Origin: Escherichia coli
GTDB lineage: Bacteria > Pseudomonadota > Gammaproteobacteria > Enterobacterales > Enterobacteriaceae
Direction: 5' to 3' (one strand)
Assembly (NCBI RefSeq): GCF_016903815.1
Contig: NZ_CP069973.1
Length of the DNA stretch: 64,000 bases
Every line of letters begins with the position of its first letter. Position 1 is the stretch's first letter. A model generated the notes under the pieces. That model saw only the letters and a program-made list of their open reading frames with translations. It was not told the origin of the DNA and did no database searches. This document shows, one piece after another, positions 22,180 through 22,503 of this stretch. A program made the translations under genes and the position numbers.

Positions 22180-22503
22180 ATGAAGGTAATACAATGTTGT
22201 TATTTCCTTGCTTTAGTCTCCAGTCATTTAATGGCTGGAGTTATGAGTGATGACAATATATTTTTAAGTAATTCGGATTTAGCTGCTTTATATTGTGTGG
22301 CTAAAATATTTCCAGATGGAGAAAATATTTTAATATATAAAGTAAATATAATTAATGCTAGTTCAAAAAAAGATGTATTTTTTTATGAAAGCCCAACATC
22401 AACCCACAATGACATAATGGGGGGCGGGGGAATGTCATATGCCTATGAATATGATGTAAAATATAATATATGTCATTTGAGAAAAAAGAGCAGAATGAGG
22501 TAA
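22180..22503 (+). CDS. putative Rhs immunity protein (candidate, unverified)
   Basis: 107-aa AT-rich ORF starting at ATG 22180, one nt after the rhs stop (TAA 22176-22178); this tight toxin-then-small-ORF layout is typical of rhs/rhsI pairs. N-terminus MKVIQCCYFLALVSSHLMAGV looks like a signal peptide or membrane anchor. The listed ORF 22144..22503 overlaps the rhs 3' end, so the internal ATG is preferred. Confidence 0.6.
   Translation: MKVIQCCYFLALVSSHLMAGVMSDDNIFLSNSDLAALYCVAKIFPDGENILIYKVNIINASSKKDVFFYESPTSTHNDIMGGGGMSYAYEYDVKYNICHLRKKSRMR

Follow-up and report, generated by a model that had tools for sequence, protein, structure and literature searches.

A candidate immunity protein with a signal-like N-terminus behind a DUF4329 Rhs toxin tip of Escherichia coli

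Small immunity proteins such as Tsi1/Tai, Tli, Tsi3 and Cmi carry a Sec signal, a lipobox or a membrane anchor, are encoded beside their effector gene and neutralise wall- or membrane-attacking toxins in the periplasm; for these proteins both export and neutralisation have been demonstrated. The gene dsORF-f3, which lies directly behind an rhs gene in the stretch of Escherichia coli DNA analysed here (64,000 nucleotides of contig NZ_CP069973.1, assembly GCF_016903815.1; the window), resembles them in that its product is small, has a signal-like N-terminus and adjoins an effector, and we infer the same export and neutralising role for it. It differs from them in fold and in partner toxin, neither of which is related to theirs.

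A second point of comparison is Imm-NTF2-2 (PF15631; YhhH, YbbC), which was assigned as the immunity family of Tox-JAB-2/DUF4329 toxins by Zhang et al. (2012; PMC3482391). Like dsORF-f3, its members are encoded directly after DUF4329 Rhs tips and are about 100-125 aa long, and the two groups have in common a signal- or lipobox-like N-terminus and an alpha+beta layout of a helix followed by strands, in which a Gly-Gly loop precedes strand 3 and the chain ends on a basic residue. Unlike Imm-NTF2-2, dsORF-f3 lacks the EKPY and W motifs and pairs with another DUF4329 subtype (tips 30-37% identical), and no sequence relationship between the two is detectable. Any likeness to the cystatin, PepSY and fetuin-type protease inhibitors is seen at the level of the predicted fold only.

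On comparative sequence evidence, dsORF-f3 is very probably the cognate immunity gene of the DUF4329 toxin tip in front of it, and its product is probably exported; that the toxin finds its target in the envelope we hold somewhat less firmly than export itself. The whole chain, from an exported periplasmic immunity protein over a JAMM-fold tip of a PAAR-Rhs type VI effector to an envelope target, is the reading towards which we lean, and the two genes would constitute a new, uncharacterised Rhs toxin/immunity pair. In this scheme dsORF-f3 would be translated by coupling to the rhs stop codon, and a 20-residue N-terminal signal, cleaved or kept as an anchor, would direct the protein along the Sec route across the inner membrane. 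The mature domain of about 87 residues, predicted to pack one helix against a sheet of four strands from which an invariant Gly-rich loop protrudes, would then reside in the periplasm and bind toxin tips injected by sister cells. An exported immunity protein would in turn imply an envelope target for this toxin clade, which would most likely have the activity of a metallopeptidase or amidase and not of a cytoplasmic RNase.

Gene position and linkage to the toxin tip

An earlier note on this DNA had described an AT-rich open reading frame (ORF) of 107 aa that begins one nucleotide after the rhs stop, in the canonical rhsI position. Its coordinates agree with our analysis (Table 1), in which the ORF has a GC content of 30%. 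The 107 codons run from an ATG at 22180 to a stop at 22501-22503, and 1 nt separates this ATG from the rhs stop codon (TAA, 22176-22178). The two genes are translationally coupled, because the rhs TAA sits between the Shine-Dalgarno sequence of the ORF and its ATG. A purine-rich, Shine-Dalgarno-like sequence precedes the full-length start, and not an internal Met, in 11/11 related loci checked. We discarded M18, M22 and a further ATG upstream, at 22144, as start codons, since a Shine-Dalgarno sequence and conservation are found only at 22180. The in-frame ATG at 22144 gives rise to a 119-aa gene call that overlaps the end of rhs (22144-22179), has no Shine-Dalgarno sequence and is unconserved in relatives; this call represents the most populous cluster of the protein collection (P0002, with 1460 sequences). 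GC content is 0.30 in the ORF and 0.28-0.33 across the final 450 bases of rhs plus the ORF, whereas the rhs core has about 0.60-0.67. For sequence as AT-rich as the ORF itself, the chance of a frame staying open over 107 codons is about 3e-5, and 0/20,000 shuffles remained open. A promoter and terminator scan around the ORF returned nothing notable.

The gene is already annotated, by position only, and no function, localisation or family is attached to its name. WP_001521836 matches the window ORF at 100% identity, the RefSeq name dsORF-f3 also covers WP_001323627, and no use of the name was found in the literature searched. The upstream PAAR-Rhs protein consists of an N-terminal PAAR/DUF6531 region, a YD-repeat shell and an RHS core ending in ...DPLGL, and NCBIfam RHS_core and Rhs_assc_core match its C-terminal part. 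The tip that follows has a Pfam DUF4329 match, a JAB/JAMM fold and an intact E...HxH...S..D motif (E29, H73-x-H75, S99 and D102 in tip numbering), and its subtype is marked by the signature ...EYGGLICKK...YHTHG[FY]...FS..D...EY.SYLGTP. Tip and ORF are 100% identical to those of strain 7/2 and of many other strains.

A word-index protein search with the ORF returned E. coli copies only, many of them truncated. Exhaustive representative and profile searches brought up further relatives at 25-50% identity in Salmonella, Hafnia and metagenomes, and the genera with relatives are Escherichia, Salmonella, Hafnia, Rahnella, Superficieibacter and Acidovorax. The tip is present in about 40% of complete E. 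coli genomes (2170/5426) and the ORF likewise in 2170/5426, with a median of one copy per genome. At every relative's locus that was read, including those of the 25-50% homologues behind DUF4329 tips (L007-L011, L014-L024, L029, L030 and L032), the ORF lies 1 nt after a DUF4329 tip of the same subtype or overlaps it by 4 nt (ATGA). The linked tips take three forms: part of a full Rhs protein, an orphan tip (in Salmonella pathogenicity island 6 [SPI-6] and in Hafnia arrays) or a decayed remnant; orphan tip/ORF cassettes are seen in Salmonella, Hafnia and metagenomes. The two partners diverge in parallel, tips of 71, 71, 52 and 50% identity being followed by partners of 47, 47, 30 and 25%. Linkage and co-divergence with the tip are what comparative analysis ordinarily shows for cognate immunity genes, and the rhsI position claimed by the earlier note is accompanied by a linkage that is kept across genera.

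A diverged (74%) DNA match in strain HH97 was dropped because it falls in a low-complexity G/C-rich stretch and may be an assembly artefact. It is the only diverged DNA match to the ORF: at the rpmE-yiiX locus of HH97 (L006 2243-6331) the rhs region is unannotated and holds G/P/R-rich low-complexity ORFs on both strands, and poor assembly there is possible.

Names in the literature overlap at this point. The 'RhsFI' of a 2025 NAR (Nucleic Acids Research) RNA-binding paper (PMC7618764) was considered as a match for dsORF-f3 and rejected, as it is ECs0604, a different protein at another locus; the 'RhsF/RhsFI' of papers on enterohaemorrhagic E. coli is z0705/ECs0604 in S-loop 44, with a restriction-endonuclease-like toxin, and not the classical RhsF-type element at rpmE. 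The rpmE-locus gene is called 'RhsB (z5488)' in PMC7216683, where a JAB-like (proteasome lid) model for z5488 and a weak TMEM motif in its partner were noted.

Table 1. Positions in the window of the candidate immunity gene, its predicted segments and the adjoining effector gene.
Feature	Position	Strand	Remarks
PAAR-Rhs effector gene, 1390 aa	18006..22178	+	translation; RefSeq 'RHS element core protein' in strain 7/2
C-terminal toxin tip, 147 aa after DPLGL	21735..22175	+	DUF4329 = Tox-JAB-2 domain, JAMM-type motif
Shine-Dalgarno GGGAG	22167..22171	+	8 nt ahead of ATG; rhs TAA in between
Candidate immunity gene (107 aa)	22180..22503	+	RefSeq 'RHS element protein dsORF-f3', WP_001521836
Predicted Sec signal peptide or signal anchor, residues 1-20	22180..22239	+	n = MK, h = VIQCCYFLALV, c = SSHLMAG
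Mature domain, about 87 aa	22240..22500	+	predicted helix 31-43; antiparallel strands 53-60, 63-70, 85-92, 97-105
Slippage-prone runs A7 (22365-22371) and T7 (22378-22384; T9 in commonest allele)	22365..22384	+	in frame here
GGGG loop codons, G81-G84, between strands 2 and 3	22420..22431	+	invariant in 15/15 family members

The N-terminal segment and its likely fate

The N-terminus of dsORF-f3 (MKVIQCCYFLALVSSHLMAGV) contains one Lys, and its first acidic residue is D24. The earlier note had called it signal-peptide-like, a description that holds up in hydropathy, in an export heuristic and in the conservation of the pattern across the family. Its Kyte-Doolittle maximum over 11 residues is 2.30 (residues 3-13), as against 1.92-2.58 in eight textbook Sec signal peptides. 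The heuristic asked for a basic n-region, an 11-residue Kyte-Doolittle value of at least 2.0, the absence of acidic residues and small residues at -3/-1; applied to 41 annotated proteins of the neighbourhood, it passed the ORF, Cdh, YiiQ, YiiX, YijE, YijF and a 5'-nucleotidase-like protein. All of those besides the ORF are known or annotated as exported or membrane proteins, and none of the cytoplasmic proteins pass (0/~30), so that by this measure a candidate signal peptide is present.

The same layout recurs in 15/15 full-length family members (25-97% identity), which start with MK, MR or MN, followed by a hydrophobic run of 10-15 residues and then by a site of the small-x-small type (AFG↓E, ATG↓E, TSG↓I, LSG↓V or MAG↓V, the arrow marking the candidate cleavage point). 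The segment itself shows no sequence conservation, the aligned mature part starting directly after it at [IV][FY]L[ST]N, and an n-h-c pattern that is kept in the absence of sequence conservation argues for signal-peptide-like behaviour. Acidic residues come after the hydrophobic run in dsORF-f3 proteins, and an N-in/C-out topology is therefore favoured. In AlphaFold2 (AF2) models, residues 3-17 form a detached, low-confidence helix and the linker at residues 15-24 has a predicted local distance difference test score (pLDDT) below 50. A lipoprotein reading of the E. coli ORF was rejected, there being no lipobox after the h-region.

Whether such a segment would be cleaved is less clear-cut for the E. 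coli protein, whose h-region includes Q, C, C, Y, S, S and H and whose candidate sites (VSS↓H, LMA↓G, MAG↓V) are none of them ideal, both of which count against straightforward export. With no good AXA-type site in the c-region at LMA↓G or MAG↓V, the protein might retain the segment uncut, as a signal anchor holding the domain on the outer side of the inner membrane in the manner of the colicin M immunity protein Cmi; in that case the toxin would have its target on or close to the membrane surface, lipid-linked wall precursors being one example. The hydrophobic run together with SSHLMAGVM does span about 19-20 residues, and distant partners at L035 and L043 are among several with long hydrophobic N-termini and no obvious cleavage site. 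The best 19-residue window has a Hessa-scale free energy of +3.9 kcal/mol, however, which is unfavourable for a stable transmembrane (TM) helix; Salmonella- and Hafnia-type relatives have short h-regions followed by the classical sites AFG↓E and ATG↓E, and lipobox-like sites occupy this position in the Rahnella partner and in YbbC. We therefore favour a cleaved signal peptide, and regard the anchor form as less probable and, taken as a reading of its own, as unlikely.

Partners of other DUF4329 tips and the activity of the toxin

More than half of complete E. coli genomes carry a DUF4329 tip of the RhsB/RhsD type. Behind such tips in E. coli and Salmonella lie Imm-NTF2-2 proteins (YhhH, YbbC, WP_000867001 and P0070), and 4/4 of these have signal-like or lipobox-like N-termini, for example MKVMIILMLSILPLLPSFSHG↓ES and MKYSSIFSMLSFFILFAC↓NE. 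The argument of the earlier note from an exported immunity protein to an envelope target is strengthened by these N-termini. A word-index search seeded with the Salmonella Imm-NTF2-2 protein returned 2 proteins only. No NCBIfam model matches the ORF, and Pfam gives no hit to it even at E <= 10; among its 15 + 23 relatives, too, Pfam finds no match to PF15631 and nothing else of relevance. Filing the ORF under PF15631 was rejected, because hhalign to Imm-NTF2-2 is not significant (probability 0.6% with a narrow and 7.4% with a broad alignment), with equivalent strands aligned in the comparison. In Salmonella Wangata, two orphan DUF4329 cassettes of different subtypes lie adjacent (L020 3516-4310, L021 585-1894), the partner being a dsORF-f3 relative in one and an Imm-NTF2-2 protein in the other, both with signal-like N-termini.

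A wider scan with the tip profile, using one genome per species, gave 34 loci from many phyla at which the ORF after each toxin was read. A signal, anchor or lipobox N-terminus is present on the partner at about 18/31 informative loci, the other three loci being uninformative; the bearers include Rahnella, Superficieibacter, Acidovorax, Luteimonas, Sphingomonas, Pseudoalteromonas, Rheinheimera, Breznakiella and the Bathymodiolus symbionts. Predicted export signals are the rule for DUF4329 partners in the Enterobacterales, in conflict with the RNase label that these toxins carry, and it is this conflict that gives the locus an interest beyond the single gene. Exported partners would argue against a cytoplasmic substrate of the DUF4329 toxins in the Enterobacterales clade, and their consistency offers a cheap, testable pointer to an envelope target.

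That label points to the next alternative, in which the partner would give protection in the cytoplasm against a toxin with nuclease or RNase activity, its hydrophobic N-terminus being a buried structural element or a peripheral membrane tag. Later genome papers repeat 'RNase' or nuclease for DUF4329 second-hand, citing Ma et al. 2017. About 10/31 loci have a partner of homologous architecture without a hydrophobic N-terminus, among them those of Burkholderia, Duganella, Xenorhabdus, Zophobihabitans, Myxococcota, Terriglobia and Planctomycetota, so that the signal is absent in about a third of the loci, in phyla elsewhere, and the near-identical toxins L035 and L038 differ in whether their partner has one. 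A SignalP/TMHMM screen of Salmonella SPI-6 gives 'No' for signal or TM segment in the RhsA-DUF4329 partners, of whichever family, that it tabulates. All of these observations weigh against export and an envelope target. Set against a cytoplasmic partner are the first 20 residues, which have no sequence conservation and yet keep a strict n-h-c order and are left unpacked by AF2; the occurrence of such N-termini, some with lipoboxes, on partners from three sequence-unrelated Enterobacterales families; and a charge distribution that favours C-out. The nuclease role of Tox-JAB-2 was moreover suggested by analogy with RadC, as a prediction and not from an assay (Zhang et al., 2012; PMC3482391), and no assay of DUF4329 activity was found in the literature searched, where the label reads 'putative RNase'. 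We accordingly consider a cytoplasmic partner improbable.

The toxin itself offers a further hint in favour of the periplasm. Its residues Cys35 and Cys62 (LICK...CP; codons at about 21838-21840 and 21919-21921 of the window) co-occur in 6 tips, all with signal-bearing partners, and are both missing from 25 other aligned tips, the six tips representing only two or three clades. The pair suggests a disulfide and is compatible with its being formed in the periplasm.

The mature domain of dsORF-f3 has a predicted cystatin/NTF2-like fold of one helix and four strands, in which Cys98 is invariant and the final residue is basic. Its family profile gives clear matches to the Superficieibacter, Acidovorax and Rahnella proteins and weak ones to several others. 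The 23 single-domain partners found behind DUF4329 tips align end to end with the dsORF-f3 family, with a common layout in which a helix comes first, strand 1 opens with an aromatic residue, and an RG[GS]/GGGG loop is followed by two more strands; the last residue is basic in 21 of them. G81 is invariant in all 23 of these partners, which come from many phyla, and lies mostly inside an RG[GS] loop, to which the GGGG loop of the dsORF-f3 family corresponds. The partners of DUF4329 toxins in many phyla accordingly share one predicted architecture that is without Pfam coverage. Partners of about 170-190 aa (L035, L037, L038 and L041-L043, from Acidobacteriota, Myxococcota and Planctomycetota) look like tandem helix plus four-strand units, and a hydrophobic segment is present at the N-terminus of some of them but not of others.

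When the family profile and the tip were searched by sequence against solved structures, no relatives were found. In an AF2 model of the tip fused through a (GGGGS)6 linker to the mature partner, both domains fold (pLDDT 69.6); the Gly-rich loop stays below a pLDDT of 50, and the model is neutral as to an interface. As a hypothesis only, based on the conservation of the loop and on JAMM clefts being known to accept Gly-Gly tails, the loop could plug the narrow JAMM cleft of the toxin. An extended reading would join these strands: the Tox-JAB-2/DUF4329 Rhs toxins of Enterobacterales would be periplasmic JAMM metallopeptidases or amidases and not RNases, acting for instance on peptidoglycan stem-peptide or Lpp-type isopeptide links, and would be neutralised by a single exported cystatin/NTF2-like superfamily comprising dsORF-f3, Imm-NTF2-2 and the partners from many phyla, whose RGG/GGGG loop would mimic a Gly-Gly tail and plug the active site. 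In this full form it is tentative, and we would not expect all of it to hold. No JAMM-fold enzyme acting as an antibacterial wall or envelope toxin was found in the literature searched, and such a toxin appears to be undescribed.

Another Rhs pair with a putatively exported partner is seen on a metagenome contig (L010 1-2381), where the tip of the main Rhs protein has a phospholipase-A2-like CG.HD.CY motif and the next protein encoded has ankyrin repeats and a lipobox (SFSGC). The Hafnia locus L015 shares flanking pbpC and alpha-2-macroglobulin-type genes with L010.

Frameshifted alleles and the surrounding locus

In about half of the carrier E. coli genomes the ORF is interrupted by indels of 1-2 nt at the A7 and T7-T9 runs. 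A systematic sample down the ranking contained a copy of 322 or 323 nt in 17/39 genomes, and exact matches to two in-frame alleles across the runs were found in 802 + 282 of 2169 genomes. RefSeq flags the ORF as frameshifted in O157:H7, whose allele is A6, and in others, with rhs there still encoding 1390 aa; homopolymer sequence is also noted at 22419-22430 in the ORF. The truncated frameshift product would be without strands 2-4 and the Gly loop, and a frameshifted ORF beside an intact rhs implies that immunity is dispensable in those genomes, which counts against a working immunity gene. The indels could represent pseudogenisation, phase variation or assembly error. Since half of the E. coli carriers, O157:H7 among them, have a defective copy of the candidate immunity gene, these alleles bear on whether such strains are vulnerable to kin that fire the toxin.

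The pair might on this evidence be a decaying, silent relic in E. coli, with the ORF intact in the window by chance of lineage. The A7/T9 frameshifts in about 44-50% of carrier genomes and the RefSeq pseudogene flags fit such decay, as do the nested IS1 elements that flank the locus and the H-NS silencing of the type VI secretion system of enterohaemorrhagic E. coli (PMC7618764). Against it, the window has an undamaged ORF and Shine-Dalgarno sequence, an rhs of the full 1390 aa and a complete JAMM motif, the in-frame alleles are exact in the 802 + 282 genomes counted above, the family stays open across genera at 25-50% identity, and homopolymer indels could equally be reversible phase variation or assembly errors. 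We judge a silent relic to be quite improbable and retain the reading of a functional immunity gene. Synteny as the sole link to the toxin would also suit a secreted accessory factor (an adaptor, chaperone or co-toxin) travelling with DUF4329 tips. We hold this to be highly improbable: immunity genes are typically recognised by just such co-divergence with the tip and by orphan cassettes of tip and ORF in poly-immunity arrays, and the chaperones and adaptors of Rhs proteins (Eag, DUF1795, DUF4123) have their genes upstream and act in the cytoplasm.

The gene order on the E. coli chromosome in the window is priA, rpmE, rhs, ORF, IS1, yiiX and metJ, the interval from rpmE to yiiX being the classical RhsF-type site. 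Downstream of the ORF, a complete IS1 of 768 bp (22705-23472, plus strand) has the 9-bp target duplication CGCTCAATG on both sides (22696-23481) and is nested in an IS1H-like element of the minus strand that is older and frameshifted; strain 7/2, otherwise identical, is without this second IS1 insertion. Further along, at 29008-31824, a hypothetical gene of 376 aa on the minus strand overlaps the 3' end of metL and is adjoined by the signal-bearing 5'-nucleotidase-like gene, between metL and metF; neither gene is known to be present in K-12.

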